From Desulforamulus reducens MI-1 (GTDB taxonomy: Bacteria; Bacillota; Desulfotomaculia; Desulfotomaculales; Desulfotomaculaceae), in NCBI RefSeq assembly GCF_000016165.1, contig NC_009253.1, positions 2,893,484 through 2,925,483 on the forward strand: 32,000 nt of DNA. The letters are read 5' to 3'. Both the position numbers and the translations under genes were made by a program. Of the stretch, positions 2,348 through 28,848 are shown piece by piece; position 1 is the first letter of the stretch, and every line of letters starts with the position of its first letter. The notes below the pieces were generated by a model. It did not search any database, had not been told where the DNA came from, and saw nothing but the letters and a program-made list of their open reading frames with translations.

Positions 2348-3463
2348 CTACACAAGTTCCACCAGGTTGCTTCTCCTCAGCATTTCATAAATATCCTTCT
2401 CCTCAGGCCTTCTGGGACAGTTGGTCAGGTTTTTGGCCTGCAGGGTTTTTTCCACAAACCTTGCCTGTTCTTCGGCGGTTAGCTTAATATCTACAGCCGG
2501 CAACACTTTATTGAACAAGTTTCCTACTTCTGCAAGGTCATGACAGCCCATTGCTTTTATTACCTGTTTCACCCTGTCGGGGGCATCCTGAGCCATAAAC
2601 TCCAGAGCGGCTTTCGTGGTCACACCGTTGGCCAAGCCGTGGGGCAGATCCTTATAATAGGTTAATGGATAGCCCAGGGCATGAACTACACTTGTGCCAG
2701 TTTGAGCAATGACGATGCCTGCCAACGTGGAGGCGTAGAGCAATTCTTCCCTCTCAGCCAGGGAAATACTATCAGGGTTTATAGTTCTCAACAACTGGCC
2801 AAGGATACGGATGCTTTCCAGGGCCAACAGGTCGGAATAAACTGTGGCACGGTTGCTGATATACCCCTCGATACTATGGGACAGGGCATCCACCGCAGTA
2901 TTGGCAGTGATACTCCATGGTAGGTTCAGCATATATCTGCCATCAAGGAAGGCTAGGGTTGGAAACAGCTTCTCCCCGGCAATGGACATCTTGGTTTCTG
3001 CCCAATCCACCGTCAATACGGCATAGGGAGTTACCTCACTGCCGGTACCGGCAGTGGTGGGAACTGCTACCGTTGGCAGAGGTTCATTGGTCCATTTCTT
3101 GGCCATTAAATCCTGCTGGCTTATCTCGTTAATCGCCATGACAGCTATGGCTTTGGCAGCATCCAGGGGACTGCCCCCGCCGATACCAACGATGAAATCA
3201 GCTCCCATTTCCTTAGCCCGCTGCCCCCCTCGTAATACGGTGGCAAGGCTGGGGTTTTGTTCTACCTCATTAAATATTTGATATTCAATTCCTTCTTTAT
3301 GTAGGGCAGTAGTCATGTCCTCCAGGGAACCATTCTTTTTAGAAGAACTACCTCCGGTGACAATCAAGGCTCTCTTACCTAAGGCCGCCAGTTCACTGCT
3401 GTTTTGTTCTAGGCAGCCCTGGCCAAAGAATAACTTGGTGGGACAGTAAAAATTGAATTGCAT
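2348..3463 (-). CDS. Iron-containing (group III) alcohol dehydrogenase family protein
   Basis: 371-aa ORF, ATG with GGAGGG 6 nt upstream. Fe-ADH hallmarks are present: GGGSPLDAAKA glycine-rich NAD(P) motif and the metal-ligand histidine region (ALSHSIEGY, VVHALGYPL). Confidence 0.85.
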   Translation of the reverse strand: MQFNFYCPTKLFFGQGCLEQNSSELAALGKRALIVTGGSSSKKNGSLEDMTTALHKEGIEYQIFNEVEQNPSLATVLRGGQRAKEMGADFIVGIGGGSPLDAAKAIAVMAINEISQQDLMAKKWTNEPLPTVAVPTTAGTGSEVTPYAVLTVDWAETKMSIAGEKLFPTLAFLDGRYMLNLPWSITANTAVDALSHSIEGYISNRATVYSDLLALESIRILGQLLRTINPDSISLAEREELLYASTLAGIVIAQTGTSVVHALGYPLTYYKDLPHGLANGVTTKAALEFMAQDAPDRVKQVIKAMGCHDLAEVGNLFNKVLPAVDIKLTAEEQARFVEKTLQAKNLTNCPRRPEEKDIYEMLRRSNLVELV

Positions 3464-3618
3464 AGGATACCCTCCTGTATCAGTAAAGTAATCAGTACTT
3501 GTTCCCTATTTTATCACCTATTTCCTTAAATTTTTCAACTCATAACATGATTTATCAAGCCAAAGGAGCAGTTTTTTGATACACCACAGTAGAGTCTAAT
3601 ATCATGCAATACTCGATT

Positions 3619-4344
3619 CTATGACCATGGCTCCACCCTCAACCGCCGAGCAAATCGCCGCAATATCTGCGTAAACCGTTCTCCAAAAAATAGGTAAAAC
3701 ATGCTATTGCCTATTGCATGCATGGCATCAATGGAAAAGCTGGCTGCATAAGTAGCCAAAAAGGTTTGCCACGTGTGGGGATATACAAACCCCAGCCAAT
3801 GCCAAAGATTCATAATCCAACCATATAGGAAACCCCAACTAAAAAGAAACAAAACCATTGCCCAACGCTGTATATGAGGAAATACTTTGGACAGAAAACT
3901 GCCTGAGGCTCCAGCCAACCCCCAGGCCAGCATCTGCCAGGGAGTCCATGGACCCTGTCCCAGGAAGAAGTTGGAGACCAATGCTGCAGAAGCACCCACC
4001 ATGAATCCGGCCCGTAGACCGAAAACATACCCGCTTAAAACCGTCAAAAAGGTGACAGGCTGAATGCCAGGCAAAAAAGAAAAGGGGACCCTGCTGGCAG
4101 CAGCAAGGGCTCCCAAGGCGGCAATTATAGCCAGTTCCCGGGAGGAAGCCTGCTTTTGTTCAAAGGCTATAAACAACAAGGCCAAGATCAAAAAGGCCAC
4201 ACCCAGACCCAGCAATCCCCAGTTTTGCCCTCCAGCTACCTGGTTACTGAAGCTACCAGCGGTTATCCATAAAATCGCTGCCACAGCCAGCCCTAGTGCC
4301 CATCTCCCCCATTTTTTACGTCTAAACAGTTTTCCTTCTCCCAC
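3619..4344 (-). CDS. ECF-transporter substrate-capture (S) component, putative corrinoid-specific; unusually long (241 aa)
   Basis: All-hydrophobic multi-TM protein. GTG start with AGGGGGA 6 nt upstream, overlapping the ATPase gene by 23 nt. It is the last gene of the riboswitch-controlled operon, directly after ecfT and ecfAA'. Substrate assignment rests on context only. Confidence 0.6.
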   Translation of the reverse strand: MGEGKLFRRKKWGRWALGLAVAAILWITAGSFSNQVAGGQNWGLLGLGVAFLILALLFIAFEQKQASSRELAIIAALGALAAASRVPFSFLPGIQPVTFLTVLSGYVFGLRAGFMVGASAALVSNFFLGQGPWTPWQMLAWGLAGASGSFLSKVFPHIQRWAMVLFLFSWGFLYGWIMNLWHWLGFVYPHTWQTFLATYAASFSIDAMHAIGNSMFYLFFGERFTQILRRFARRLRVEPWS

Positions 4345-6085
4345 TTATAATCCCCCTGCCTTTACTCCGCAACAATTCCCACCGGGCCAACGCTTCTTCT
4401 ACCGTAAGAAGGGGATTGGTAAATCCCTGGCTCAACCTGCCCAATTGGGTGGTATAAAAAATTCCATTGCCCATTACATCCAAGGTTGACCCCTTACGGA
4501 CAAGCCTGCCCCGATGAAGCACAGCCACATGGGAAGCAGTCCGGGCTGCAAATTCTATATCATGGGTAATCATGATAACGGCAGCACCGCCTTGAGTGTA
4601 TTCTCGAAGTCGCATGGTCAACTCTTCTTTCAAGCGCACATCCATGCCCCGGGTCGGTTCGTCCAGCAATAAAAGATCCGGACGGGTAACCAGTACCGAT
4701 GCAAGGGCAACCCTCTGGCGCTGACCACCGCTTAAGTCCCGGGGATGACAATGTCGGTACTCGTCTAAGTGAAAACCTTGCAGCAATTGCTCCACAATGC
4801 CATCGTCTGGCAATCCATATTGTTTCAAGCTAAAAGCAATTTCTTCTTGTACCGTATCCTGAAGCAAGTAGTCATTGGGGTTCTGGGCCAGATAGGCCAG
4901 ACGCCCCGGTCTCCCTACTAGGCCATGTTTCTTGTGGCCTTTATCAACCACAGTAATACAGCCCCGACCCGGTTTCAATAACCCGGCGATCAGTTTGAGT
5001 AAGGTGGATTTCCCGGCCCCATTGGCACCCAAGATCACGAGCAATTCCCCCGGAAAAATTTTCAGACTCAAATCCTTAACGGCCTCATGACCGTCAGGAT
5101 AAGCATACCACAGCCGGTCCAAGGACACCGACGGTTCTCGCCTTGGTTCCTGATCAGTCCTATGTACAGTTTCTGACAGGATGGGACCACTTATTTTCCT
5201 CTGTTCTGTAGTCCGAGAAAGACCCCGGCGAACCCCTTCCTGCCCAGAGAGCTCTTTTTGTCTATCCATGAACTGGCCCATGAACTTTCGCCCCGCCGCA
5301 ATGGTGATGGGAAGTGGCTTTATCCCTATTCTGGCAAAAAAGGTGGCCACTGGCGGCAAAAAGGGAACTCCTCGTTCCACGGCCCACTCCGCCATCCTGT
5401 CCGGTGGATCATTGAAGCGCACCTGTCCTTTTTCCATGTATAACACCCGATCGGCTAGATGAAAACACCTCTCCAAACGCTGTTCTACCAAAATGATGGT
5501 CATGCCCATCTCTTCATTCAACCGCCGAAGAAAAGCAAGTATTTCTTCGGCTGCCACCGGATCTAACTGGGAGGTGGGCTCATCCAAAATCAAAACCCTT
5601 GGGCGCATGGCCAAAACCGCACCCAAAACCAAGCGCTGTTTCTCCCCACCAGAGAGTTGTTGCACTGCTTTATGAGTTAAAGAGGATAAGTTTAAAAAAT
5701 CCATGACCTCTGCCATGCGCCAGCCCATTTCTTCTTCGGGCATACCCAGGTTTTCCAGACCAAAGGCCAGTTCAGCCTCCACATTGGTCATCACCAGTTG
5801 TTTTTCCGGGTCTTGAAAGACAATACCCACTTCCCTGGCCATTTGGCCTGGCTCCATTTGAGGAATGGATTGATTGCGGTAAGTTAATTGACCGCCAAAA
5901 CGTCCTCCATAAAATCGGGGGATTAAACCGGCCAATGCCCGGGCTAGAGAAGATTTCCCAGACCCCGATCCACCCAAAACCAGTACGAACTCACCTTCCT
6001 CTATGTTCAAATTGATTTGATCCAGAGCCGGTTGCTGGGAATCCGGGTAACAATACATCAAATTTTTGATCGTAAAGATGGCCAT
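4322..6085 (-). CDS. ecfA: ECF-transporter ATPase, fused tandem A-A' (two ABC domains in one polypeptide)
   Basis: Two full ABC cassettes. Walker A: GGSGSGKSS and GANGAGKST. Signature: LSGGEKQRL and LSGGQRQRV. Walker B: LILDEPTS and LLLDEPTR. I place the start at ATG 6085 (MAIFTIKNLMYCYPD, GGGGGTGG SD 6 nt upstream) rather than the ORF-track 6220, whose first 45 codons overlap ecfT. Confidence 0.9.
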   Translation of the reverse strand: MAIFTIKNLMYCYPDSQQPALDQINLNIEEGEFVLVLGGSGSGKSSLARALAGLIPRFYGGRFGGQLTYRNQSIPQMEPGQMAREVGIVFQDPEKQLVMTNVEAELAFGLENLGMPEEEMGWRMAEVMDFLNLSSLTHKAVQQLSGGEKQRLVLGAVLAMRPRVLILDEPTSQLDPVAAEEILAFLRRLNEEMGMTIILVEQRLERCFHLADRVLYMEKGQVRFNDPPDRMAEWAVERGVPFLPPVATFFARIGIKPLPITIAAGRKFMGQFMDRQKELSGQEGVRRGLSRTTEQRKISGPILSETVHRTDQEPRREPSVSLDRLWYAYPDGHEAVKDLSLKIFPGELLVILGANGAGKSTLLKLIAGLLKPGRGCITVVDKGHKKHGLVGRPGRLAYLAQNPNDYLLQDTVQEEIAFSLKQYGLPDDGIVEQLLQGFHLDEYRHCHPRDLSGGQRQRVALASVLVTRPDLLLLDEPTRGMDVRLKEELTMRLREYTQGGAAVIMITHDIEFAARTASHVAVLHRGRLVRKGSTLDVMGNGIFYTTQLGRLSQGFTNPLLTVEEALARWELLRSKGRGIISGRRKTV

Positions 6086-6987
6086 CGGTTCCACCCCCAA
6101 TTTAAGAGCATTGGTACAGAAAGTCCTGAAAACAAGGCTATGAATATCCCCAGCCCCTTTTTGTCCATCAGCAGGGGATCCAGTGCCGGATAAAAAGTAA
6201 AAAGCAAGCTGCCTTCCCAAATTCCATAGAGGAACACCGCCAAGACGATAAATATACCGGTCAGGCAGATACTATCCCGGGGCCGCCAAAGATCCCGGCG
6301 GTAGCGGGTGCGGGGACCACTGTTAAACCCTCGGGCCTCCATGGCTTCCGCCGTCTCCAATGCGTCTTCCAAAGACGAATACAATAGAGTTTCCACCAGA
6401 CCACCATACTTGCCTAGCCGTTCCCGTCGGGATCCCTGTTCAAATTGGACACCCCTCAGTCGCTGGATTTCCTGGATACTCTTCAGCCTTTGGGCCACGG
6501 TGGGAAACAAACGGGTGGCCAAAGATAGCACCAAGGCGGAGCGAAAAAGAGTCCCTGAAAACAGAGAGAGAATCTGATCGGGATGAACCATACGACTAAA
6601 GAGAAAAAATAAACTAAAGGCATTTAACAATTTTAAACTCATGGCAGCTCCATAACAGATGGCCTCCAAAGTTATGAACATGTGTCCCAACAAGGGTAGT
6701 TTTGGCCCCCACCAGAGGATAGTTTCCCCTGCTCTGACAAAAAGCGGGTTGACAAACAGCACAATGACACTCATCATCAGGCCAAGCCGCATATAATTAT
6801 TCCAGTCTTCGACGCTTCTAAGCCCCTGGGCCATGGTGGCTGACAAACAGAGCGTGCCTACCAAAAATACGGGATGGTCCAGGAGCATGATGAGAATAAG
6901 CATGCAAAGGAAATAACTCACTGCAACTCCCGGATGAAAGCGGGTTAACAGCGGCGTTAAAGTAAAGGTGTTTTCCCCATTCCCCAT
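6058..6987 (-). CDS. ecfT: ECF-transporter transmembrane (T) component, CbiQ/EcfT family
   Basis: Multi-TM protein with the characteristic C-terminal coupling motif (LEDALETAEAMEARGF). Start placed at ATG 6987 (MGNGENTF..., GAGGA SD, 10 nt after the upstream stop) instead of 7053. Overlaps the ATPase gene by 28 nt. Confidence 0.85.
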   Translation of the reverse strand: MGNGENTFTLTPLLTRFHPGVAVSYFLCMLILIMLLDHPVFLVGTLCLSATMAQGLRSVEDWNNYMRLGLMMSVIVLFVNPLFVRAGETILWWGPKLPLLGHMFITLEAICYGAAMSLKLLNAFSLFFLFSRMVHPDQILSLFSGTLFRSALVLSLATRLFPTVAQRLKSIQEIQRLRGVQFEQGSRRERLGKYGGLVETLLYSSLEDALETAEAMEARGFNSGPRTRYRRDLWRPRDSICLTGIFIVLAVFLYGIWEGSLLFTFYPALDPLLMDKKGLGIFIALFSGLSVPMLLNWGWNRWPSLRSKI

Positions 6988-6997
6988 ATGTTTTTCC

Positions 6998-8422
6998 TCA
7001 AGGACGGATAATAACCGCCTGTTCCCTTTCATCCCAAGATACTCTATAGCCAAAACCCTCGGCTACGAAACGAGCCGGGAGAAAAATCCTTCCCTGTTGC
7101 AGAACGGGTTCCACATCCATCTTCCTTTTCTGTCCGTTGACTAGGTTATATTTTTCTCCTAGCACCAATTGCACCTGCTGTTGTTCATGTTCTAGAGAAA
7201 CCCTTTGCGTCTGTTGGTCCCATCGGATACCGTTGTCCCGAATACCCAAGGCCTTGGCCATGTATCTCACCGGAACAAAGATACGTCCTTCTTGTACAAG
7301 GGGGGCCACGTCCATCGGCTCCTTTAGGGTGCTTCCTTGTCTGCTCACCCCATAGGTTGCTTCACCGGGCTGAAAGCGTACTTCATCAACCAAAGCAAGG
7401 ATTGACGGGGAGAGACTTTCCTGGTTGTTACGTTCTTGAGACAATCCCCTAAAAAATGGTTGGGAAGTTGCTAGGCTGTATAGCCCAAGGGCTCCCTGGG
7501 CTGTGGCCAGGGTATTGGCCCCGCCTCCTTGGAGATGGGCAAAGGCACCATCGGGGAGTTGAAAGGATTGTAACGCCTCCAGCAGTCCGCCTTTTTTTTG
7601 CCAGGGTTTATCTGCAGGATCGGCTCCTACCGCCAACAATCCGCTGATAACCATAAAGGTGCTTTCGGGATTCTCCACCCCCCAGGATTGGAAGCCGCCT
7701 GATTTCTGTTGTGCCCCTGCCAGATAGGCCAGCGCCTTATCCACCACGGGACTGCCGACCCTTTCTCCCAATGCGCCCAAAGCTATCAGGGCCATGCCAG
7801 TGGAATCCACATCAGCGGTCTCTCGATTCTGAACATCCCAGTTAAAGGAACCATCGGCATGCTGTTGAGCAATTAAATACCCAAGGGCCTTTTTGCGGCT
7901 TTCTGCCGCCCAGGGTTGACCATGGGCAGCCAGAAGAACTGAAACCCACATGTGGGTATTGTTAAGTCGGCTACCGCCCTCCACCAAATTGTCAGGAAAC
8001 TTGCCACTGGGCAGTTGGGATTGACACAACCTCTGAAACAGATCATCCCCCTCAAAATTACCGGGATCCTTTCCGGCGGCCAATAGGAGGAAAACCAAAT
8101 TTACATAATCATTGGTTTCCCCAGACTCACGGGTATAGGCTGCCTGTTCTGCAATGGCTTTATGGATGGATGTCTCTTCCATGGCTCGGCCGCTCAACTT
8201 TAAGGCCATGTACCCCCAATGTGGCAGGCTCCCCTGCCTTTTTTCCAGAGCAGACAAGTAGGCAGTGGCCTTAGAGAATGACTCCTGGGCCTGCGTATTT
8301 CCAATAGCCAAGGCTGGCACCATGGCATTCACTAACATAATAAACGTGGTCAATATAGCAATATATCTGGCTTTTAGAGATTTTCTAACATAATGCATCC
8401 TATGATTGGTATGTTCATTCAA
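6998..8422 (-). CDS. Secreted protein: N-terminal prenyltransferase/terpene-cyclase-like alpha/alpha-toroid repeats plus C-terminal copper-amine-oxidase-N-terminal-like 'stalk' domain
   Basis: TTG start with AAGGAGG 9 nt upstream. Signal-like N-terminus (KARYIAILTTFIMLVNAMVPALAIG). Repeated Q-x-x-DG-x-F/W motifs: QLPSGKFPDN, QQHADGSFNWD, QQKSGGFQSWG, FQLPDGAFAH. The C-terminus has duplicated 'EGRIFVPVRYMAKALG / QGRIFLPARFVAEGFG' motifs typical of the Cu_amine_oxidN1 fold. Confidence 0.7.
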   Translation of the reverse strand: MNEHTNHRMHYVRKSLKARYIAILTTFIMLVNAMVPALAIGNTQAQESFSKATAYLSALEKRQGSLPHWGYMALKLSGRAMEETSIHKAIAEQAAYTRESGETNDYVNLVFLLLAAGKDPGNFEGDDLFQRLCQSQLPSGKFPDNLVEGGSRLNNTHMWVSVLLAAHGQPWAAESRKKALGYLIAQQHADGSFNWDVQNRETADVDSTGMALIALGALGERVGSPVVDKALAYLAGAQQKSGGFQSWGVENPESTFMVISGLLAVGADPADKPWQKKGGLLEALQSFQLPDGAFAHLQGGGANTLATAQGALGLYSLATSQPFFRGLSQERNNQESLSPSILALVDEVRFQPGEATYGVSRQGSTLKEPMDVAPLVQEGRIFVPVRYMAKALGIRDNGIRWDQQTQRVSLEHEQQQVQLVLGEKYNLVNGQKRKMDVEPVLQQGRIFLPARFVAEGFGYRVSWDEREQAVIIRP

Positions 8423-8462
8423 AATAACGGTCCTCCTTTCCCTCTTAGAGCTAACTTTAACT

Positions 8463-9167
8463 TCAATCAGTTTTTTTCTGAACCAATTCTTCCCACTGGG
8501 GTCCGTTGGAGTTGATATCGGTACTGTACCACCAGATCACCCGATCCCCTGGCTCCACCTTTTGTTCTGTTGCCGCCACCATAGGTACTTGACCGTTTAC
8601 CTTATACATCCAGCCGTTCATTCCTTTGTTATGCTGACCGGCAATACTGCTTACAAAGCTACTAGTCTGCATGCCATAGCGTAACCCGGTGGCATGGAGC
8701 ACTCCCATGGCCGTCATGCCCCACGGGTTATCCTGGTTGATTTCCAAATCCTGAGGTCCAAAAAGCACCTCCCCCTGTTGACCAACCACGGCGATACCAA
8801 TGAGAAGATTTTTCACAGGGGTTGTCGTGGCTGGTGGCGTAGGGGAAGTACCCCCTTGAACTGGGGATGGATCCTGTTTGTCAATATTATTTTTTTTATC
8901 TAGAATCTTTTTTTGCCCATCAGAAGTTACCTTTGACTCCTGTGACTCCTGCTTTTGCTTTTCTTTCGGTTGTGGGTCCGTTACTTTATCACCCGCGGGA
9001 GATGCCAAAGGGGGTTGACTCATTTGTTCCTTTTGAACCGGGGGCGGGTGACCAGTGCCACCCGCTTGACGATTATCCTGTTGACTATAGATGATTGAAC
9101 CGAACAAAACAGATACCACAACCGCCAGGATTACCCAGTGCCAACCAAATAGACCTGCTTTTTTCAC
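8463..9167 (-). CDS. Membrane-anchored DUF4430 (transcobalamin-like C-terminal domain) protein
   Basis: GTG start with AGGTGGA SD. It has an N-terminal TM anchor (WHWVILAVVVSVLFGSIIY), a P/Q/K/T-rich linker, and a C-terminal ~100-aa domain clearly paralogous to residues ~647-745 of the 1174-aa protein (shared WGMTAM, GW MY.VNG, PMV, GD.VIWWYS.DIN). Confidence 0.7.
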   Translation of the reverse strand: MKKAGLFGWHWVILAVVVSVLFGSIIYSQQDNRQAGGTGHPPPVQKEQMSQPPLASPAGDKVTDPQPKEKQKQESQESKVTSDGQKKILDKKNNIDKQDPSPVQGGTSPTPPATTTPVKNLLIGIAVVGQQGEVLFGPQDLEINQDNPWGMTAMGVLHATGLRYGMQTSSFVSSIAGQHNKGMNGWMYKVNGQVPMVAATEQKVEPGDRVIWWYSTDINSNGPQWEELVQKKTD

Positions 9168-9178
9168 CCTTTATCCAC

Positions 9179-12100
9179 CTACTTCATAGATACTAAACGA
9201 TGGAGTAGCACAGCGACTTCTGCCCGGGTAGCCGGGTTTTTGGGTCGAAAGGTATTATCTTCATATCCCTTGATTACGCCCTGGTCCAACATGGTCGCAA
9301 CACTTTCGGAAGCCCAGGGTCCAATGGTCTCCCGGTCGTTAAAGGTCACCGGTTTTTCCCCTCCGGTCAATTGGAAAGCCCTCACCAGCATCACCGCCAT
9401 CTCTTCCCGGGTCACCGGATGATGCGGGTCAAAGGTACCATCCGGATACCCGCTGACAATCTTAGCCTTAGCAGCAGCGCTTACCGGAGAGGCAAACCAG
9501 TCGGTGGGAGAAATATCTGAGAAGGGGTACATATCACTGGCAGAGAGATTTTTGATGCGAGCCAATAAGGTAGCCAGTTCGGCCCGGGTAATGGTACGGC
9601 CCGGTTCAAAACGCTCCTCAGATACGCCGCTAATAATCCCCTGACCAGCCAACGATTCAATGGCGTCCCGGGCCCAGTCAAAGCCGGTTAAATCAGCAAA
9701 AGTCTTTCTGGCTGGTTGAGGATCCATGGTTGGCGTAGTTGTTTTTCCTGTCACCATATAGCGGGAGAAGTGGGAAATACGAGCCATGATAAGGCTTCTC
9801 TCTGCATCAAAAACAGCAGGCAATGCCACCCAGGTTTTTTCTTGGGGATTGTACCAAGAAAAAACTAGGTTTTCTGGCTGAACATTTTCGGGCAAAGCCA
9901 CTTGAATGGCCACCGTTACCGGTTCGCTAAAAGTCAACCCCTCAGGTCCCATGTGGTAAACCGGAGAAACAGCTCGGAATCCTTCGGGAAGTTTCTCCCA
10001 GCCTTGGATACTGCTGTTGATGTCGGATGGTGACATAGGCAATGGTGTTTCTTCACGGACGGTAATTTGCGCACTAGCACCAAGGGCATTGGCCGGGATC
10101 ACCAGAGCCATTTCTTCTCCTGCATCGGAGACAACCGCCCCTTTATTGGCTTCCACCTGTTGCTCAATCTCTACTCGATTAGCTTGCAGCTTTTTTTGCC
10201 GTTCTTGGGCTTCTTCCCCCTTCATCAGTTTATCAGGGGCAACCACCGCCACCGCCTGCTTTACATCACTTAGCGACCCCAAAACAGAAGTGCTGCCTGC
10301 AATGCCAAGTACCTTCTGAATATCCTCCAAGGTTTTTGCAACACTGCTTGTAGGTTGTAAAGAGGACGGGAGTAAGTCCACTTGTTCTTGCACAGATGAG
10401 GGGATGTTCGAATTAACCGCCGGCTGATTGGACCAACTTCCATCAGTTGCAGTTTCCCAGGTAGGGCCGGGATTATTGATGTCCAAGCTGTACCACCAAA
10501 TAACCTTATCCCCATCCTTAACAGGCTGATCCTTAGCCATAACCATGGGGGTTCGTCCGTTAACCATATACATCCAACCCGTCATACCCTGGTTGGCTTC
10601 TCCTTCAATGGCCGTGACGAAACCGTCTCGGTCACTGTAACTAAGCCCGGTCTGGTGTAAAGCTTCCATAGCAGTCATGCCCCACTGGCCAGTTTTTTCT
10701 ACAGTGACATAGGAGGGGCCAAACAGCTTGCTACCTGTTTTTCCAACCACTATCACACCTACACTGGCAGTATCTACCCCAGGTGTGTTACCGCCGTCCC
10801 CTGGGGTAGAACCGCCGGAGGAGGGAGTAAAACCTAACGTGTGAAAGGCATTTAGGGCTATGGTGGCGCCAAAAACATTTTTGCTGTCACCAAAGCTACC
10901 ATCATTGTTTAGGGATTTTTCCAGCAGCCAGTCCACGGGGCTTTTGCCCTCACCACTTTTTAATTCCCGGGGATCCTGGTTCAAACGCTTCATGGTTAGG
11001 ATCATCTCGGAAGTGTCTACCACCGCATCGTCCCAGCCAGTTTGATAGCTGCCATCATTCCTTTGCTTTTCTTTAAGATAGTCCACCCCTTTTTTGATAC
11101 TGGCAGCAACATCTGCATCGGTGGCATAGCCCTTTAGGTAGGTTAAGGATCGAACCGCCTGGGAAGTGGCCATAAAGTCGGGATAATCTGGGTATGTACT
11201 ATCCCATGCTCCCATGTTGTCCCCATCACTAATCTGCCGATCGAGCAGGAAGATCCTGGCATCGTCCTTAATGGCATCTATCTGTCCCTCTGTCCCCAGG
11301 GCCAGATACGCCCATACATCACCAAAGAGGTTGTTGGAAAAGCCCTGAGACGAATGCTGATCATGTAATAAAAACGTCAGCTTCTCCACACGCTCGGCCT
11401 CTTCAAATCCCTTCATGGCCAATAGGTTTAAACCTACGGACTTAGCCTGGGGAACTTTGGCCCAAAGAGCATTTTCACCTGCGTACTGGTCATAGGTAAG
11501 TCCTTGTTTTTTTAAGGCAATTAGCAACTCGGCTGCCGCGGTACTGCTATCTCCGCTGACAGGTAGGGCTGCCGTATCCTTGTCTTGTACACTCTTTAGG
11601 TAGGTTAAGGCGTCATCGATGGCTTCCCCTGCCACATCGGAATCAAATTTCGATAAAGCAGTCACCGCCTGGGCGGTCAACTCCGAATCCTTGGGTGTAT
11701 ATGAAGTACCATAGGCTTTGCCTGCCGGAGTGCCCCACTCATCATGGTCTCTTTGGAATTCATTAAGGTAGGTCAGGGCATTAACCTGATCCACACCGGT
11801 TAGTTGGTTGGTTTCCCCCAAGGCTCTTAACACAGCCACCTGGTCAAAGACGCCAAAATCTCCGCCTGAACCGAAATAAACCTGCCCTTCTTCTGTAACA
11901 GAAGCTTTGCTACGTATAGCATCGCCCAGTTGACTCACCTTTTCATGGGTTGGTTCAAGGGCATATAGAGCACCTAAATGTTTAGCCAATTCAGTGGCTG
12001 ATTTATCGTTGGCATTTTCTGCAGCATATACGGCTTCGGCTACGGCTTTGTCTTGTAAGGAAATTCCGTTTTTTACCCAGCCATCCTGGGTTAAGTCTTC

Positions 12101-12703
12101 TCCGGCAGTTTTTAATGCTACAACTGTTCGAGCATCAAAGGCGGCAAAACCGCTGTTACTATAATCCTCTGAAAGGGGATAACGGCTTTTCAAAAAAGCA
12201 ACGGCCTTGGTGATAGCCTGTTCCACTCTTTCTTTTAAGGCTCCGTCCAAATCATCTTTGATCAGAGCCAGGGCTTCTAAGGCTATTTTGGTTCCATATT
12301 CGTTAGCATAAGGCCCAAAGCTACCATCCGGATTCTCGTGAACCAGAAGGTAAGTAATCAAGCTGTTTTTTTCCAATCCCAGTTCGTGTCCGATGGTGAT
12401 GGCGTCCGTAGCCTTAACCAAGTCTTGTTTGGCCGACGGGCAATATGGTTTTGTCCACTTGTCAGAACCCAAATCTTCCCCAGCTAGGGTTAAAACATAA
12501 GCCGTATAGCCGTCCAAACTTTCCCCGGCCATATATTTTTCATGTATGAACTCTACGGCTTTGCCAGCTAATTCTCCTCCACTGGCTGTTGTAGGTTCGT
12601 TGGCAAACGCAGAAAAAGGAAGTAGCAGATTGGTTAAAAAACATACCATGAACAACAACACGATTCTCTTGCCAATCGATGAATTAAAAAAGAGGTTTCC
12701 CAT
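9179..12703 (-). CDS. Large S-layer-homology (SLH) anchored surface protein: signal peptide, extended alpha/alpha-toroid repeat region, DUF4430 domain, unknown domain, three C-terminal SLH modules
   Basis: 1174-aa ORF, ATG with AAGGAG SD. Signal peptide ends ...LLPFSAFANE. Toroid-type repeats: HENPDGSFGPY, RQISDGDNMGAWDS, KQRNDGSYQTGWDD, LNNDGSFGDS. It also carries a G/S/T/P linker, a DUF4430 domain and three SLH repeats. Confidence 0.8.
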   Translation of the reverse strand: MGNLFFNSSIGKRIVLLFMVCFLTNLLLPFSAFANEPTTASGGELAGKAVEFIHEKYMAGESLDGYTAYVLTLAGEDLGSDKWTKPYCPSAKQDLVKATDAITIGHELGLEKNSLITYLLVHENPDGSFGPYANEYGTKIALEALALIKDDLDGALKERVEQAITKAVAFLKSRYPLSEDYSNSGFAAFDARTVVALKTAGEDLTQDGWVKNGISLQDKAVAEAVYAAENANDKSATELAKHLGALYALEPTHEKVSQLGDAIRSKASVTEEGQVYFGSGGDFGVFDQVAVLRALGETNQLTGVDQVNALTYLNEFQRDHDEWGTPAGKAYGTSYTPKDSELTAQAVTALSKFDSDVAGEAIDDALTYLKSVQDKDTAALPVSGDSSTAAAELLIALKKQGLTYDQYAGENALWAKVPQAKSVGLNLLAMKGFEEAERVEKLTFLLHDQHSSQGFSNNLFGDVWAYLALGTEGQIDAIKDDARIFLLDRQISDGDNMGAWDSTYPDYPDFMATSQAVRSLTYLKGYATDADVAASIKKGVDYLKEKQRNDGSYQTGWDDAVVDTSEMILTMKRLNQDPRELKSGEGKSPVDWLLEKSLNNDGSFGDSKNVFGATIALNAFHTLGFTPSSGGSTPGDGGNTPGVDTASVGVIVVGKTGSKLFGPSYVTVEKTGQWGMTAMEALHQTGLSYSDRDGFVTAIEGEANQGMTGWMYMVNGRTPMVMAKDQPVKDGDKVIWWYSLDINNPGPTWETATDGSWSNQPAVNSNIPSSVQEQVDLLPSSLQPTSSVAKTLEDIQKVLGIAGSTSVLGSLSDVKQAVAVVAPDKLMKGEEAQERQKKLQANRVEIEQQVEANKGAVVSDAGEEMALVIPANALGASAQITVREETPLPMSPSDINSSIQGWEKLPEGFRAVSPVYHMGPEGLTFSEPVTVAIQVALPENVQPENLVFSWYNPQEKTWVALPAVFDAERSLIMARISHFSRYMVTGKTTTPTMDPQPARKTFADLTGFDWARDAIESLAGQGIISGVSEERFEPGRTITRAELATLLARIKNLSASDMYPFSDISPTDWFASPVSAAAKAKIVSGYPDGTFDPHHPVTREEMAVMLVRAFQLTGGEKPVTFNDRETIGPWASESVATMLDQGVIKGYEDNTFRPKNPATRAEVAVLLHRLVSMK
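9194..9703 (-). other. Three tandem SLH cell-wall-binding modules (domain-level annotation inside the 1174-aa CDS)
   Basis: Residues ~1001-1170: FADLTGFDWARDAIESLAGQGIISG...TRAELATLLARI; FSDISPTDWFASPVSAAAKAKIVSGYPDGTFDPHHPVTREEMAVMLVRAF; FNDRETIGPWASESVATMLDQGVIKGYEDNTFRPKNPATRAEVAVLLHRL. Confidence 0.85.
10469..10765 (-). other. DUF4430 / transcobalamin-like C-terminal domain inside the 1174-aa CDS
   Basis: Residues ~647-745: SVGVIVVGKTGSKLFGPSYVTVEKTGQWGMTAMEALHQTGLSYSDRDGFVTAIEGEANQGMTGWMYMVNGRTPMVMAKDQPVKDGDKVIWWYSLDIN. It aligns by eye along its whole length with the C-terminal domain of the 234-aa protein. Confidence 0.7.
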
Positions 12704-12718
12704 TACACATTTCTCCTT

Positions 12719-13444
12719 CTAGTTATCTGATATTGCTTGACAATATTTTTGAATAGCTCCGGTTAGAGTTCTTTGAACGCCGTTGGCCAATAGACAGCCG
12801 GTTACAGTAGTGGGGCCGGCATAATCCGCCAAAGGTCCTTTGGGATTTCCCGCCACAATGACAGCATCGGTACCCGTACCAGTGGCCGGAAAACCCGACT
12901 GAAGACATCGAACCCCCATCTCTCCCAGAGTTCTGGTCTTGGCTTCAGTAATGGTTTGCACCGCATTAACCAATCCTCCCGGTGTCAACGAATGGGACAA
13001 AAAGGCCATGATGTTGATGGTTCCCGGACAGGGCTTGGTTTGAGAAAAACAAACCGTTAGGCCTGCCGCACAAGCATTGCTCAAGCCAGCGGTGGTGATG
13101 ACCACAGCCTCCTGGGTTCCACAAGCCAGTTGAGCCCATACGCCATGACTAACCCAGGCGGCTGTCATTAGAGCAGAGCAAGCGTCTATTTGACAAAAAG
13201 GCAGGGTTGCCTCTAACCATTTTGTCATTTCCTGGTTTGGGTTGCAGGCATCATAATTTTTGGACACCTGTCGATTTAGAAAAAGAAGTTTAGTACCAAT
13301 ACCCCCACCCAAGACGCCGGAGCCAATGGAAAGCCAAGGTTCATTAGCCTCTACCAGAATACACTTTGAAGTTACCCGGCCTCGCAATCCAGACAGCAAA
13401 TGGATTGGCGTGTCGGGCTTAGGCGAAAACATATTCATCTTCAC
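12719..13444 (-). CDS. cbiZ: Adenosylcobinamide amidohydrolase (corrinoid salvage/remodelling)
   Basis: 241-aa ORF, GTG start with GGAGGG 6 nt upstream. Motifs I associate with the CbiZ family: LSIGSGVLGGG, MTAA, GTINIM, LVNAVQTITEAKT, ATGTGTDAVIVAG. It is the first gene downstream of the cobalamin riboswitch. Confidence 0.8.
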   Translation of the reverse strand: MKMNMFSPKPDTPIHLLSGLRGRVTSKCILVEANEPWLSIGSGVLGGGIGTKLLFLNRQVSKNYDACNPNQEMTKWLEATLPFCQIDACSALMTAAWVSHGVWAQLACGTQEAVVITTAGLSNACAAGLTVCFSQTKPCPGTINIMAFLSHSLTPGGLVNAVQTITEAKTRTLGEMGVRCLQSGFPATGTGTDAVIVAGNPKGPLADYAGPTTVTGCLLANGVQRTLTGAIQKYCQAISDN

Positions 13445-13534
13445 GGACAGCCCTCCATAGATTGTTTTTCCTCAGTGATAAAAAAACAATACATCTCCTT
13501 TGCTATAAAATAATTGTTTGTACTAAGCACAAAT

Positions 13535-13561
13535 AAACCTTACCCAAAAAAGGTAAGGTTT
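13535..13561 (-). terminator. Putative riboswitch expression-platform terminator hairpin
   Basis: RNA sense: AAACCUUACC-UUUUUUG-GGUAAGGUUU followed by AUUUGUGCUU. It lies between the aptamer and the cbiZ start. The U-tract is only moderate, so control at the translational level is not excluded. Confidence 0.45.
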
Positions 13562-13628
13562 ATTGAAGTAAGCCACTGGCTTAGTGCCTCTCACCTTCCC
13601 ATCGACCGTGGGTATATTCTGGTGAAAC

Positions 13629-13805
13629 AAACAGGTAGGTCTCCTGACTTAGAATCATCAAAACTTCACGTCTTCCCAGTTGATTACCTCATCGGCTTAA
13701 ACCAGTGACACAGGTGTGAAGATTTTCATCCATACAGTGGCGGGACCGCGCCGGCTTTGCACCGGTCTTCCCTTTTAACGCTTCTTAATAATAAGCGGCC
13801 TGTTT
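13629..13805 (-). promoter_or_regulatory. Cobalamin (B12) riboswitch aptamer
   Basis: Minus-strand RNA reads ...AAAAGGGAAGACCGGTGCAAAGCCGGCGCGGTCCCGCCACTGTATGG... (GCCACTG core at 13741..13735) and ...AAGTCAGGAGACCTACC (B12 box, 13650..13634). A closing helix pairs AAACAGG (13805..13799) with CCTGTTT (13635..13629). It matches the conserved cobalamin-riboswitch core from memory. Confidence 0.9.
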
Positions 13806-13830
13806 CTTCTGTATAAAATTGTATAAATTG

Positions 13831-13859
13831 ATATAACTTGGATATTAATCTTTATTCAA
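13831..13859 (-). promoter_or_regulatory. Candidate sigma-A promoter for the riboswitch operon
   Basis: Minus strand: TTGAAT (13859..13854), 17-nt spacer, TTATAT (13836..13831). This predicts a start ~20 nt upstream of the riboswitch P1 helix. Sequence match only. Confidence 0.35.
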
Positions 13860-13910
13860 TATATTTCTATAAAATCCTCTAACTTATATTTATTTTTGTA
13901 TTAAGTTAAA

Positions 13911-13954
13911 CAAAAAAGAAGCATAACGTATCCATAGCGGATATTTATGCTTCT
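13911..13954 (-). terminator. Intrinsic terminator downstream of tRNA-Gly
   Basis: Minus strand: stem AGAAGCATAA / TTATGCTTCT (13954..13945 and 13926..13917) followed by TTTTTTG. It separates the tRNA/rph transcription unit from the riboswitch promoter. Confidence 0.6.
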
Positions 13955-13968
13955 TTATATAAAATAAA

Positions 13969-14042
13969 TGGAGCGGGTGAAGGGAATCGAACCCTCGTAA
14001 TCGGCTTGGAAGGCCGACGCTCTACCATTGAGCTACACCCGC
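13969..14042 (-). tRNA. tRNA-Gly (anticodon UCC), 74 nt with genomically encoded CCA
   Basis: Reverse complement GCGGGTGTAGCTCAATGGTAGAGCGTCGGCCTTCCAAGCCGATTACGAGGGTTCGATTCCCTTCACCCGCTCCA folds as a cloverleaf. Acceptor GCGGGTG/CACCCGC, D arm GCTC/GAGC, anticodon stem TCGGC/GCCGA with loop CT-TCC-AA, and T arm with a TTCGATT loop. Confidence 0.95.
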
Positions 14043-14199
14043 ATAATCTTATGGAATCATACTTTTCACCGGAACGAATATTATTATATCAAACTCACAG
14101 CAATTGTCAACAGTATTTTTACCCTTTGTTTTTTAATTTCAACAAATTATCAATCAGGCCACAGTTTTTTCCGCGGCCTGATAAATTAAAGACTACTTC

Positions 14200-14688
14200 T
14201 TAGGGATAAAAGTAATCAATATGGAAAATTTCTGTATTTATCTTATTGCCTTGTATTTCAATAAGACCCACTGAGGGTCTTTTCCTACCCCTTGGCTGTA
14301 CCGGACTTCCCGGGTTGATGATCATAATATTATCAATAACCCGAAAATCAGAAATATGAGTATGTCCATAAATGGCCACCTGAGCCCCTAATTCCTTTGC
14401 CCTTTCCAAAATGGAATTGGTACCATACTTTACACCATGCCGATGCCCATGGGTTATGAATATTTTAAAACCTTCCACCTCTAGTAAATCTTCAATGGGG
14501 GCATCACCAGGATAATCACAGTTACCCATGACTCCCTTGGCAGGTACCTCCAGGGTAAAGGCCAATTCATTGCAATCCCGATAGTGATCCCCAGCATGGA
14601 GAATGAGGTCCACCTTCCCTATATGTTTCATTATATGATAAATGGGACCCAGCCTACCGTGGGTATCCGCTAAAACCAAAATACGCAA
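14200..14688 (-). CDS. YfcE/MJ0936-family metallophosphoesterase
   Basis: 162 aa, TTG start with AGGAGG SD. Calcineurin-like motifs are present: LADTHG, GDH, GNCD, HGH, GHTH. Confidence 0.85.
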   Translation of the reverse strand: MRILVLADTHGRLGPIYHIMKHIGKVDLILHAGDHYRDCNELAFTLEVPAKGVMGNCDYPGDAPIEDLLEVEGFKIFITHGHRHGVKYGTNSILERAKELGAQVAIYGHTHISDFRVIDNIMIINPGSPVQPRGRKRPSVGLIEIQGNKINTEIFHIDYFYP

Positions 14689-14691
14689 TCC

Positions 14692-15297
14692 TTAAACCTC
14701 CTGGTGAATGTAAAGGCGGTTTAGAATCTCCATTGCTTTTTTTAGAGCTTTCCCCCGGTGACTAATGGAGTTCTTCTTTTCCATATCCAATTCTGCAAAG
14801 GTTTGTTTATATTCCGGCACGTAAAACAGGGGATCGTAGCCAAAACCACCCTCGCCCTTTAATTCTCTTAAAATAACCCCCTCACAGCTTCCTTCCGCTG
14901 TGTGAATCCTACCATTAGGTTCCGCAATGGCTATGACACACCGGAATCTGGCTGTCCGATGATCCTGGGGAACTCCTTCCAACAGACTTAATAATTTAGC
15001 ATTGTTTGCCGTATCGTCCTTGGGTTCCCCAGCAAAACGGGCTGAGTAAACCCCCGGCGCACCCTTTAATGCATCCACCTCTAAACCCGAATCATCGGCC
15101 AAAGCCAATTCTCCGGTAAATTCTGCTGCGGCCAGAGCTTTTTTAATGGCATTGTCTGCAAAGGTATTTCCGTCTTCCTCTACCTCTGTAAAACCCGGAA
15201 ATTCGCCGATGGAAACTACCTGATACCCGCAGGGTTTTAATAGCTCGGCCAACTCTTTCACTTTGCCTTTATTGTTGGTTGCTAAAACTAACTTCAA
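14692..15297 (-). CDS. rdgB: Non-canonical purine NTP pyrophosphatase (XTP/dITP diphosphatase), RdgB/HAM1 family
   Basis: 201 aa, TTG start with AGGTG SD. Family motifs: LATNNKGKVKE N-terminus, DDSGLEVDAL, GFGYDPLF, SHRGKAL. Confidence 0.9.
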   Translation of the reverse strand: MKLVLATNNKGKVKELAELLKPCGYQVVSIGEFPGFTEVEEDGNTFADNAIKKALAAAEFTGELALADDSGLEVDALKGAPGVYSARFAGEPKDDTANNAKLLSLLEGVPQDHRTARFRCVIAIAEPNGRIHTAEGSCEGVILRELKGEGGFGYDPLFYVPEYKQTFAELDMEKKNSISHRGKALKKAMEILNRLYIHQEV

Positions 15298-15306
15298 AAA
15301 TTACAC

Positions 15307-19726: not shown

Positions 19727-19741
19727 TCCAACCTTCCGCAC

Positions 19742-24586: not shown

Positions 24587-24714
24587 ACGGAAGACCTCCC
24601 AGTTCAATTCGCTTATTAATAAATTGCTTGATTTTTCTTAGTTTCTCCCATTTTGGAAATTCTTCCTCCTTAATAGAGAACGATTTTACTTTTATTTTTC
24701 CATTATACAATAAT

Positions 24715-28761: not shown

Positions 28762-28848
28762 ACCAGCCCTCCGTAAAAACTCTAGATATAGCCAGTTTAA
28801 CCACATTTTAAAAAACTAGACACCCTGCTAAAATAAAAAGAATCACTT

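Follow-up and report, generated by a model that had tools for sequence, protein, structure and literature searches.

A bacterial system for scavenging vitamin B12 or its precursors was predicted on computational grounds by Burroughs, Balaji, Iyer and Aravind in 2007 (Biol Direct 2:4, PMC1796856), its parts being secreted proteins with SLBB and alpha/alpha-toroid domains, present as paralogous pairs and encoded in CbiO/CbiQ operons. One example given there of an N-terminal toroid joined to SLBB is a Desulfotomaculum reducens protein, which is probably Dred_2680 of the operon described here. For passage through the membrane, ECF-CbrT has been proven to import both cobalamin and cobinamide at the expense of ATP (Santos et al. 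2018, eLife, PMC5997447). The separated TC-alpha and TC-beta parts of transcobalamin (TC) come together only when cobalamin is present, and the beta part by itself binds CNCbl and cobinamide (PMC5599065). A first-pass annotation of the present locus had regarded such surface systems as lacking experimental characterisation and, by implication, as novel; this does not stand, given the 2007 prediction and the deletion and complementation of Lactobacillus sakei lsa1836-1840, reported for haem uptake.

The window, a 32,000-nucleotide stretch of Desulforamulus (Desulfotomaculum) reducens MI-1 DNA with positions counted from its first letter, contains Dred_2675-2681, an operon of seven tightly packed minus-strand genes. 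The canonical B12 riboswitch that had been placed upstream of cbiZ at 13629-13805 was recovered by Rfam as a cobalamin aptamer (RF00174, full model 1-189) at 13617..13818 on the minus strand, scoring 113.5 bits (E = 5.7e-28; gathering score 31.5). Between aptamer and cbiZ, at ~13532..13564 (minus strand), the minimum free energy fold gives a terminator-like hairpin with a 14-bp stem (AAUAAACCUUACCU/GGGUAAGGUUUAUU) and a U-rich tail after the stem, the fold of 13500-13640 having z = -3.6 relative to shuffles; this putative element would fit an expression platform that works by terminating transcription. Behind the riboswitch come cbiZ, a 1174-aa SLH protein, a 234-aa DUF4430 protein, a 474-aa toroid/stalk protein, ecfT, a fused ecfA-ecfA' and the S component. 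The seven open reading frames lie where they had been reported, and the junctions, recomputed from coordinates and translations, are likewise +15, +11, +40, +10, -28 and -23 nt. An internal terminator had not been seen, and minus-strand terminator-like sites are indeed only weak stems of 5-7 bp that fall within coding sequence; within 2500-15500, 17 such sites against 16.0 +/- 4.3 expected amount to chance frequency.

We take Dred_2681-2675 to be an operon for corrinoid scavenging, under repression as long as B12 suffices, and would put the probability of this reading at about three in four. The first gene, cbiZ (Dred_2681, 12719..13444, minus strand; GTG start, GGAGGG 7 nt ahead), encodes an adenosylcobinamide amidohydrolase (PF01955, 172.9 bits). 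At the other end of the operon, likewise on the minus strand, are the genes of a dedicated ECF importer: ecfT (Dred_2677, 6058..6987; ATG at 6987, behind the +10 junction) for the T component (CbiQ, PF02361, 59.4 bits; partial match to TIGR02454), and ecfAA' (Dred_2676, 4322..6085; ATG at 6085, behind the -28 junction), whose product holds two ABC ATPase domains in one chain (PF00005 twice, 203.5 bits; TIGR04520, 375.6 bits). The S component (Dred_2675, 3619..4344) scores 29.0 bits with PF12822, below the 30.7 cut-off, and has a sole PDB match, to CbrT of L. delbrueckii (6FNP_A; E = 3.7e-11, 165 residues). A B12-dependent glutamate mutase is encoded 8-11 kb from the operon within the same window, and represents local B12 demand.

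More than half of the coding capacity, 1882 of ~3260 codons (58%), is given to exported proteins, as had been estimated, and all domains predicted for them were present in the domain scan. The largest, Dred_2680 (ABO51186.1, 9179..12703, minus strand), has a signal peptide, toroid repeats of the SQHop/prenyltransferase type (aa ~35-640), a DUF4430 or transcobalamin-like beta-grasp (aa ~655-750, 10454..10741, minus strand; PF14478, 57.3 bits), a ZU5-like domain (aa 854-934, 9902..10144, minus strand; PF00791, 21.0 bits, and 24.6 bits with E = 3.1e-5 in a scan of this region by itself) and three SLH repeats (aa ~1000-1174, 9182..9706, minus strand; PF00395, 144.2 bits) that form a cell-wall polymer anchor. 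About 20 aa ahead of the first SLH repeat is the tripeptide H-F-S (aa 978-980, 9764..9772, minus strand), singled out by conservation: HFS or HFT occurs in 22 of 24 syntenic homologues, and 156 of the 167 hits obtained from the best 150 cluster representatives have it too. With the HF/S site of PIDD as precedent, this HF[S/T] is a candidate ZU5-like, autoproteolysis-type motif.

The 234-aa Dred_2679 (8463..9167, minus strand; PF14478, 62.4 bits) consists of an N-terminal transmembrane anchor, a ~95-aa linker rich in P, Q, K and T, and a C-terminal DUF4430 beta-grasp (8466-8792) that is 55% identical to that of Dred_2680. In Foldseek searches with the AF2 model of this domain (pLDDT 95.3), the top 19 PDB matches were the beta-domains of transcobalamin, haptocorrin and intrinsic factor together with the bacterial DUF4430 structure 3U7Z (E = 1.5e-4 to 3e-3, TM ~0.6, rmsd ~3 A), followed by SUMO/ubiquitin at E > 2e-2. 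The DUF4430 profile matched nothing among PDB sequences at E <= 10, and the case for homology to the TC beta-domain thus comes from the fold and from profile searches in the literature. The model supports a B12-carrier beta-domain fold for DUF4430, and the supposition that the exported proteins were built from unrelated parts has to be given up, as DUF4430 corresponds to the beta-grasp of these three carriers and a toroid followed by a beta-grasp is the domain order of transcobalamin. The 474-aa Dred_2678 (6998..8422, minus strand; TTG start at 8422, GGAGG 9 nt upstream) has a signal/anchor helix, an alpha/alpha toroid (aa ~45-335) and a Cu_amine_oxidN1 "stalk" domain (aa ~345-474, 113 bits). 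Its toroid (AF2 model, pLDDT 89.8) comes closest, among solved folds, to terpene cyclases and the beta-subunits of prenyltransferases; the first 50 Foldseek matches do not include transcobalamin, so that the link to the alpha-domain of the carriers is at the level of fold class only.

Surface placement of these proteins, proposed earlier, agrees with the published D. reducens surfaceome (PMC4137172 supplements), in which Dred_2680, labelled "prenyltransferase" by the authors, was found in surface-protein extracts, under fermentation only and not Fe(III) reduction, and Dred_2679 was recovered by cell shaving. Neither Dred_2678 nor the ECF subunits were found in the same supplements.

The first-pass annotation had asked whether the gene set recurs behind RF00174 in other genomes. 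It does: the cluster is found in Moorella/Neomoorella, Pelotomaculum, Desulfovirgula, Syntrophomonas, Desulfotomaculum, Thermacetogeniaceae, Brevibacillus, Paenibacillaceae, Tumebacillus and Wukongibacter, and the operon design is widespread in Gram-positive bacteria. A same-strand cobalamin aptamer heads the surface-protein genes in 39 of the 40 homologous loci that could be evaluated, that is, those with the 5' side present, and Rfam confirmed the aptamer in 15 of 15 loci submitted. Surface and ECF genes are constant, cbiZ is optional and varies in position (it is co-operonic in about nine loci), and the Dred_2680-type protein is found in most loci directly behind the riboswitch. Two loci (L028 and L035) are without this protein and have the riboswitch (Rfam-confirmed), beta, alpha-stalk, T, AA' and S genes. 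In some actinobacterial-type homologues (P0060, P0064) a CbrT-like S component is fused through an extra transmembrane segment to a toroid, a "Rosetta stone" arrangement. Riboswitch-controlled corrinoid acquisition by extracytoplasmic proteins and a dedicated ECF importer, the central proposal of the earlier annotation, is strongly supported by the distribution of the aptamer, the CbrT homologue, the beta-domain fold, these S-toroid fusions and the detection of Dred_2680 and Dred_2679 at the cell surface.

When intracellular (adenosyl)cobalamin is low, the aptamer would be empty, the terminator hairpin unformed and all seven genes transcribed. The three Sec-exported proteins are then predicted to display a transcobalamin-type binding site, in its two halves, on the outer side of the membrane: Dred_2680 would hold toroid(s) and beta-grasp in one chain at the S-layer/wall, Dred_2679 would tether a second beta-grasp to the membrane by its long flexible linker, and Dred_2678 would provide a free toroid with a wall- or protein-binding stalk domain. 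By analogy with transcobalamin, the corrinoid may be sandwiched between toroid and beta-grasp, split alpha and beta parts assembling only around the ligand. Toroid-bound ligand could pass to the CbrT-like S component, powered by EcfT and EcfAA', a delivery suggested by the ECF-CbrT homology together with the natural S-component/toroid fusions. CbiZ, whose chemistry, the salvage of corrinoids to cobyric acid, is established, would here act on cobinamide brought in by the importer, or on cobamides whose lower ligand is unsuitable, so that they can be rebuilt. Equally good as an ordered relay is an arrangement in which the beta part of Dred_2679 and the alpha part of Dred_2678 close around one corrinoid, with Dred_2680 as the fused alpha-beta version further out.

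A possible but less likely explanation is that the surface proteins bind corrinoids with no ordered relay, Dred_2680 being an independent reservoir or competitive sequestering agent while the beta and alpha pair close to the membrane alone feeds the transporter. That L028 and L035 retain riboswitch and core suggests that the large protein is dispensable for a working core, its two binding-site halves in a single chain would favour tight retention over hand-off, and surface reservoir proteins are described in the Bacteroides literature (a role proposed for BtuJ); its presence in most loci immediately behind the riboswitch argues the other way, however, and the conserved HF[S/T] between binder and anchor hints at a regulated connection and not a static store. 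Import of haem or another tetrapyrrole is very improbable. It is the reported function of the homologous L. sakei cluster of five genes, deletion of which impaired haem accumulation, restored upon complementation (Verplaetse et al., bioRxiv 10.1101/864751), and ECF-type haem uptake exists in S. lugdunensis. The L. sakei S component is, however, without the residues conserved in cobalamin binders according to its authors (bioRxiv 10.1101/864751), and that system may therefore be a diverged offshoot; the D. reducens S component matches CbrT, and hemin was not a competitor for CbrT (PMC5997447). The almost universal cobalamin-specific riboswitch, minimal five-gene versions included, and cbiZ within the same operon at about nine loci also speak against haem. 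That the toroids are terpenoid cyclase/prenyltransferase-like or glycoside-hydrolase-like enzymes remodelling the envelope or processing a substrate under B12 limitation is likewise very improbable: the class II terpene cyclases and prenyltransferase beta-subunits that head the fold and sequence matches of the Dred_2678 toroid, the invariant acidic and polar residues of the family alignment (including D204-V-D206-S-T-G-M-A) and the surfaceome label of Dred_2680 would allow it, but the proteins lie outside the cytoplasm and at a distance from prenyl diphosphate pools, the sequence matches span SsDMS 402-484 and SHC 446-534, outside the catalytic DxDD of squalene-hopene cyclase (which we take to be residues 374-377), D-x-D-[DST]-[TS] is absent from the whole Dred_2680 sequence, and the toroids are fused or paired with a B12-type beta-grasp and, in some genomes, with an S component.

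Compared with known systems, the proposed corrinoid scavenging by Dred_2681-2675 resembles transcobalamin, intrinsic factor and haptocorrin in having an alpha6/alpha6 toroid and then a beta-grasp, which in the carriers together sandwich one corrinoid, and the separate 474-aa and 234-aa genes are mirrored by the TC halves that join only with ligand. Unlike the eukaryotic carriers, to which no sequence similarity was detectable in the PDB and whose uptake uses an endocytic receptor, the bacterial proteins are tethered to wall or membrane, would feed an ECF transporter, and have a toroid structurally closer to prenyltransferases/terpene cyclases. ECF-CbrT of Lactobacillus delbrueckii (6FNP) shares the homologous S component and an EcfT/EcfA/EcfA' energising module, but its module is a shared general (group II) one without extracellular partner proteins, whereas D. 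reducens has a dedicated module, fused ATPases, a ~60-aa N-terminal extension of the S component and three exported proteins in the operon. L. sakei Lsa1836-1840 has the same five-part core of S, fused ATPases, T, transcobalamin-beta-like and toroid (alpha-like) proteins, corresponding to the minimal loci L028 and L035, and differs in its reported substrate, haem, and in being without the SLH protein and cbiZ (Verplaetse et al. 2019/2020). Bacteroides BtuG/BtuH/BtuJ and staphylococcal Isd similarly put several surface binders before a transporter in the membrane, with control that responds to the nutrient, but their folds are unrelated: in Pfam scans, none of the three exported proteins gave a DUF4465, NEAT or other Btu/Isd domain, the only match to a NEAT-protein model being confined to the SLH region. 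Unlike Btu, the present system belongs to a Gram-positive envelope and has an ECF importer instead of a TonB-dependent one. The systems of Burroughs et al. (2007) have the domain pair, secretion signals, wall anchoring, a second paralogous SLBB protein and CbiO/CbiQ-type linkage in common with this operon; the riboswitch, the CbrT-type S component, the SLH, ZU5-like and stalk modules and S-toroid fusions are not mentioned in that paper, which gave no quantitative survey. New here are the riboswitch statistics, the S-toroid fusion and, ahead of the SLH anchor, the conserved HF[S/T] as a candidate ZU5-like motif of the autoproteolysis type.

The operon headed by the cobalamin aptamer most likely serves riboswitch-controlled corrinoid scavenging and import, an overall function given a probability of roughly 0.75, and its parts are directly observed in the window. 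Rfam places an RF00174 aptamer at 13617-13818 on the minus strand (113.5 bits against a gathering score of 31.5, E = 5.7e-28), and the full-length match, covering model positions 1-189, bears out the canonical B12 riboswitch recognized in the first-pass annotation. Seven tightly spaced minus-strand genes had been described behind it, and the recomputed junctions of +15, +11, +40, +10, -28 and -23 nt agree. Six proteins of the window are identical to GenBank entries of D. reducens MI-1. In published supplementary tables the operon is flanked by Dred_2674 (Fe-ADH) and Dred_2684 (RNase PH), so that the seven genes are Dred_2681 to Dred_2675: cbiZ, the 1174-aa SLH protein or "giant" (Dred_2680, GenBank ABO51186.1), the 234-aa membrane-anchored DUF4430 protein (Dred_2679), the 474-aa toroid and stalk protein (Dred_2678), ecfT, the fused ecfAA', and the S component. 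Every domain predicted for these proteins was returned by Pfam and NCBIfam, CbiZ matching PF01955 with 172.9 bits over profile positions 2-190 of 191. The absence of an internal terminator was also upheld, with 17 terminator-like sites against 16.0 expected and those on the coding strand weak and within genes.

Between the aptamer and cbiZ, at about 13532-13564, lies a hairpin of 14 bp with a U-rich tail, whose fold beats all 200 shuffles (z = -3.6). It is absent from the sites listed by a consensus terminator scan, and is plausible as a candidate terminator arm of the expression platform. Directly upstream of the riboswitch, a tRNA gene (13972-14042, minus strand; 77.3 bits) with anticodon UCC, read from the sequence as Gly, marks the 5' limit of the operon. 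This tRNA has its own sigma-70-type promoter (14083-14110; a perfect 12/12 with extended TG) and its own hairpin terminator (about 13915-13955), which places the start of the riboswitch transcript within about 13915 to 13818.

The importer genes are encoded together, with overlaps of 28 and 23 nt, and supply a T component, two ATPase domains and an S component. Assignment of EcfT (PF02361, 59.4 bits) and of the fused EcfA-A' (PF00005 twice; TIGR04520 at 375.6 bits, cut-off 315) from these profiles is unambiguous. The S component falls under the PF12822 cut-off of 30.7 with 29.0 bits; its sole match among all PDB sequences is 6FNP chain A, the CbrT subunit of L. delbrueckii ECF-CbrT (E = 3.7e-11 over 165 residues, with residues 69-233 aligned to residues 10-174). 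ATP-dependent import of cobalamin and cobinamide by ECF-CbrT has been proven biochemically, and hemin is no competitor (PMC5997447); through the match to CbrT the transporter half of the operon is predicted to be a dedicated CbrT-type corrinoid importer. Haem as the substrate would find its precedent in L. sakei, where deletion of lsa1836-1840, encoding S, AA', T, beta-like and alpha-like proteins, impaired haem accumulation; for the D. reducens family, however, the riboswitch, cbiZ and the similarity to CbrT all point to corrinoids, the L. sakei authors themselves report a diverged S component, and a haem importer is considered highly improbable.

Among the exported proteins, DUF4430 (PF14478, cut-off 23.8) occurs twice in the window, in the 234-aa protein at 62.4 bits and in the giant at 57.3, and the two domains are paralogues with 55% identity. 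Background for this domain comes from its description as a C-terminal domain that vertebrate transcobalamins share (PMC4350170) and from the work of Burroughs et al. (2007, PMC1796856), who placed it in the SLBB beta-grasp superfamily as the transcobalamin-like clade. The domain of the 234-aa protein was modeled with AlphaFold from a 19-sequence alignment (pLDDT 95.3), and a PDB search with the model gave as ranks 1-19 the beta-domains of transcobalamin, haptocorrin and intrinsic factor together with 3U7Z, a crystal structure of a bacterial DUF4430 domain (E = 1.5e-4 to 3.2e-3, TMq 0.57-0.65, rmsd about 3 A over about 104 columns); generic SUMO/ubiquitin beta-grasps followed from rank 20, at E >= 2.5e-2. 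Sequence searches of the PDB gave no match at E <= 10 with either a 29-domain profile or the single 234-aa sequence, so the link between DUF4430 and transcobalamin is visible at the level of fold only.

The alpha half is less specific. The confident model of the 474-aa protein (pLDDT 89.8) shows an alpha/alpha toroid with a beta-rich Cu_amine_oxidN1 "stalk" domain behind it, and in the PDB the toroid comes closest in fold to class II terpene cyclases and prenyltransferase beta-subunits. None of its top 50 fold matches is transcobalamin, which limits the modeled likeness of the operon's alpha half to B12 carriers to fold class only. An invariant DVDST motif in the 474-aa family was considered as the DxDD catalytic motif of terpene cyclases and rejected, the matched SsDMS/SHC stretches lying outside the catalytic motifs and the giant having no motif of this kind. 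That the toroids are enzymes instead of binders, as the cyclase matches might suggest, is accordingly most unlikely, since these matches miss the catalytic motifs, the giant lacks any D-x-D-type motif, and the toroid proteins are extracytoplasmic.

In the giant, toroid-type repeats extend over residues of about 35-640 and DUF4430 comes next, an alpha-then-beta order that is also that of transcobalamin; a homology search with its residues 331-761 returned only 3 matches. The SLH anchor matches PF00395 with 144.2 bits in 3 stretches. The earlier description of the exported proteins as built from unrelated parts thus has to be given up, as DUF4430 folds like the beta-domain of transcobalamin, haptocorrin and intrinsic factor and the domain order is that of transcobalamin. 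The operon is predicted to encode one fused alpha-beta binder, anchored by SLH repeats, and one split pair, in which a beta-grasp sits on a membrane tether with a low-complexity linker of about 95 aa and the toroid, with its stalk domain, is free. Separately expressed halves of transcobalamin offer a precedent for such split genes: TC-alpha and TC-beta expressed apart assemble only after addition of cobalamin, and TC-beta alone binds both cyanocobalamin and cobinamide (PMC5599065).

Surface location of two of the proteins has direct experimental backing. A signal peptide or transmembrane anchor is visible in the sequences of Dred_2679 and Dred_2680, and the published D. reducens surfaceome (PMC4137172) lists Dred_2680 as a 127 kDa protein with PF13249, PF13243 twice, PF14478, PF00791 and PF00395 three times, predicted to be Sec-secreted, classed CW(SL) and present in surface-protein extracts. 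Its scores were 12.2 and 9.7 in two pyruvate-fermentation samples and 0 in four Fe(III)-reducing samples, and Dred_2679 (25 kDa, N-terminally anchored, PF14478) was obtained by cell shaving in the same study. The authors labeled Dred_2680 a "prenyltransferase" and made no connection to B12 (PMC4137172). Supplements to the 2016 comparative proteome of D. reducens hold no entries for Dred_2675-2681.

Recurrence of the gene set behind B12 riboswitches, put forward in the first-pass annotation as a check, was confirmed by a comparative survey. One genome per species was scanned with an alignment of the 474-aa family, giving 48 loci; two further loci came from exact-protein look-ups, all were annotated with domain-level queries from the window proteins, and aptamers were found with an iterated nhmmer profile validated against Rfam. 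A genome contains at most a few tens of cobalamin riboswitches, and a linked aptamer in 39 of the 40 loci with their 5' side on the contig therefore cannot be due to chance. In 35 of the 40, a same-strand aptamer precedes the first cluster gene by no more than about 1.8 kb, most often by 50-400 nt; in the two Wukongibacter loci it separates the ECF genes from the surface genes, two actinobacterial loci (Streptomyces and Dactylosporangium) have weaker RF00174 matches of 44-45 bits that are above threshold, and the sole locus without one is a haloarchaeal toroid-only match. Rfam confirmed the aptamer in all 15 loci submitted, including confident nhmmer calls (8/8 in one batch, plus L048, L001 and L003) and, likewise, weak nhmmer matches in L049 and L051.

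Linkage of the genes to each other was observed as directly. The canonical order is riboswitch, (cbiZ), toroid-DUF4430-ZU5-like-SLH giant, TM-DUF4430 protein, toroid-stalk protein, ecfT, ecfAA', S component, (cbiZ), and it occurs in Moorella/Neomoorella, Pelotomaculum (including P. thermopropionicum SI), Desulfovirgula, Syntrophomonas, Desulfotomaculum, Thermacetogeniaceae and several MAGs. Rearranged versions, with toroid and DUF4430 on separate SLH proteins, are found in Brevibacillus, Paenibacillaceae, Tumebacillus and Wukongibacter. Two loci (L028 and L035) consist of the five-gene core alone, without the giant, and cbiZ, present in about nine loci at either end of the cluster, is thus an accessory. 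A second cobalamin aptamer was seen a few kb downstream of the cluster, before another gene set containing an ABC ATPase, in five loci (L005, 11399-11617; L007, 15995-16213; L011, 18198-18424; L034, 12979-13206; L014, 9064-9198), and as judged from these elements corrinoid uptake loci are clustered in those genomes. Separately, a second full-length CbrT-like S-component paralogue is flanked by the genes for the SLH giant and the small DUF4430 protein in L016 (8422-9057), L017 (8468-9103) and L019 (8555-9187), with E = 1e-55 to 1e-59 to that of the window, giving those systems two S components.

Two proteins from other genomes bear on how toroid and importer may cooperate. P0060 (L052, 2026-4011) and P0064 (L053, 1025-3016), each encoded directly after ecfAA', are single chains of about 660 aa comprising an N-terminal CbrT-like S component, a seventh TM helix and a toroid (against the window proteins, E = 5e-32 for the S part and about 1e-13 for the toroid part). 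The Streptomyces locus L049 (about 7620-10789) shows the same adjacency, with its RF00174 aptamer upstream. Natural fusions of this kind are an argument for direct physical action of the toroid on the S component. The fusion genes are followed by a small ORF and a nitroreductase-family gene.

Taken as a corrinoid scavenging and import system, the operon would be opened at low cobalamin, when the empty aptamer would allow read-through. At the S-layer or wall and at the membrane, the exported proteins would then present transcobalamin-type sites as separate toroid and beta-grasp halves, a corrinoid would be clamped between the two halves, and the toroid-bound ligand would be handed to the CbrT-like S component, with transport energized by EcfT/EcfAA'. 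CbiZ would trim cobinamide or unsuitable cobamides to cobyric acid. A strict three-layer relay, as proposed in the first-pass annotation, is one possibility, with the odds leaning clearly against it. Loci without the giant suggest that the membrane-proximal pair and the ECF importer form a self-sufficient core, and the giant, being dispensable there, may serve as an outer antenna, as a reservoir or as a sink that excludes competitors.

A further feature of the giant lies between binder and anchor. Its ZU5 match reaches the cut-off exactly at 21.0 bits, and the region alone gives 24.6 bits (E = 3.1e-5, profile positions 8-79 of 97). At the end of this ZU5-like domain, about 20 residues before the first SLH repeat, is an H-F-S motif (9764-9772, within 9704-10453, minus strand; context ...ARIS-HFS-RYMV). 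HFS or HFT is present in 22/24 syntenic giants. An exhaustive HMMER search found the module in 988 cluster representatives, and among the best 150 of these H-F-[S/T] stands at the aligned position in 156 of 167 matches; SLH repeats come after the motif in 117 and DUF4430 is present in 114, so that proteins with both DUF4430 and SLH are its usual setting. A similar HF/S serves for autoproteolysis in PIDD and Nup98; in PIDD each ZU5 domain is directly followed by a conserved HF/S at which the protein cleaves itself, and the fragments stay together (PMC3210808). By analogy with this precedent, the conserved motif makes self-cleavage between the binder and the SLH anchor a concrete possibility. 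The fuller proposal, in which the giant would be a self-cleaving, non-covalently tethered corrinoid trap whose loaded binder is released or repositioned and passes its ligand to the membrane-tethered beta-grasp and the free toroid, both of which would clasp it and dock on the S component, is speculative and rather unlikely. If true, the trap would be, on the Gram-positive side, the equivalent of a haemophore/transcobalamin hybrid, employing an autoprocessing module otherwise known from animal death-fold signaling proteins.

Elsewhere in the window, 6-11 kb from the scavenging operon, a B12-dependent glutamate mutase cluster on the minus strand represents a local adenosylcobalamin consumer. It comprises MutS (24152-24607), MutL (22751-24139) and MutE (21104-22564), followed by methylaspartate ammonia-lyase (19742-20992) and then 2-hydroxyacyl-CoA-dehydratase-like genes (18003-19741). 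Two minus-strand ORFs, of 323 aa (16058-17029) and 332 aa (27808-28806), gave no Pfam match at E <= 1e-4.

With regard to known systems, Pfam returned no Isd/NEAT, BtuG beta-propeller, BtuH or DUF4465 domains in the three exported proteins, and a match to the NEAT-protein model NF033190 is restricted to the SLH region (aa 1002-1168). Operon-2 of Dehalobacter restrictus, induced 346-fold under corrinoid starvation, was considered as the same system and set aside, as it encodes BtuFCD/Fep-type transporters, two CbiZ and chelatases and lacks toroid and DUF4430 surface proteins. According to a 2026 review, the capture of cobamides outside the cell by Gram-positives is "entirely uncharacterized", and the literature searched contained neither corrinoid-binding or uptake data for any bacterial DUF4430/toroid protein nor a paper joining a cobalamin riboswitch with S-layer homology. 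The system had nonetheless been predicted, and the novelty implied in the first-pass annotation is not supported. Burroughs, Balaji, Iyer and Aravind (2007, PMC1796856) described bacterial SLBB proteins, secreted or wall-anchored and fused to alpha/alpha toroids, with a second paralogous SLBB protein in the operon and linked CbiO- and CbiQ-like genes; noting that many hosts lack B12 biosynthesis, they concluded that B12 or its precursors are scavenged. The protein with which they illustrate an N-terminal toroid comes from Desulfotomaculum, is labeled "Dred" in the figure legend and is probably Dred_2680. The importer half was characterized in 2018.

In summary, the system was known before as a prediction, and it offers a well-defined target for experiments. 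As a candidate for corrinoid capture outside the thick Gram-positive wall, the operon is compact, well delimited and conserved widely, and its beta-grasp domains (two), toroids, CbrT-type importer and riboswitch can each be tested separately. Its value lies in making the 2007 prediction concrete for experiment, the design itself not being new, and two leads are added, namely the fusions of S component and toroid and the conserved motif of autoproteolysis type. As for the animal B12 carriers that its domains resemble, the operon bears on the proposal that those proteins came from Gram-positive bacteria (Burroughs 2007, PMC1796856).
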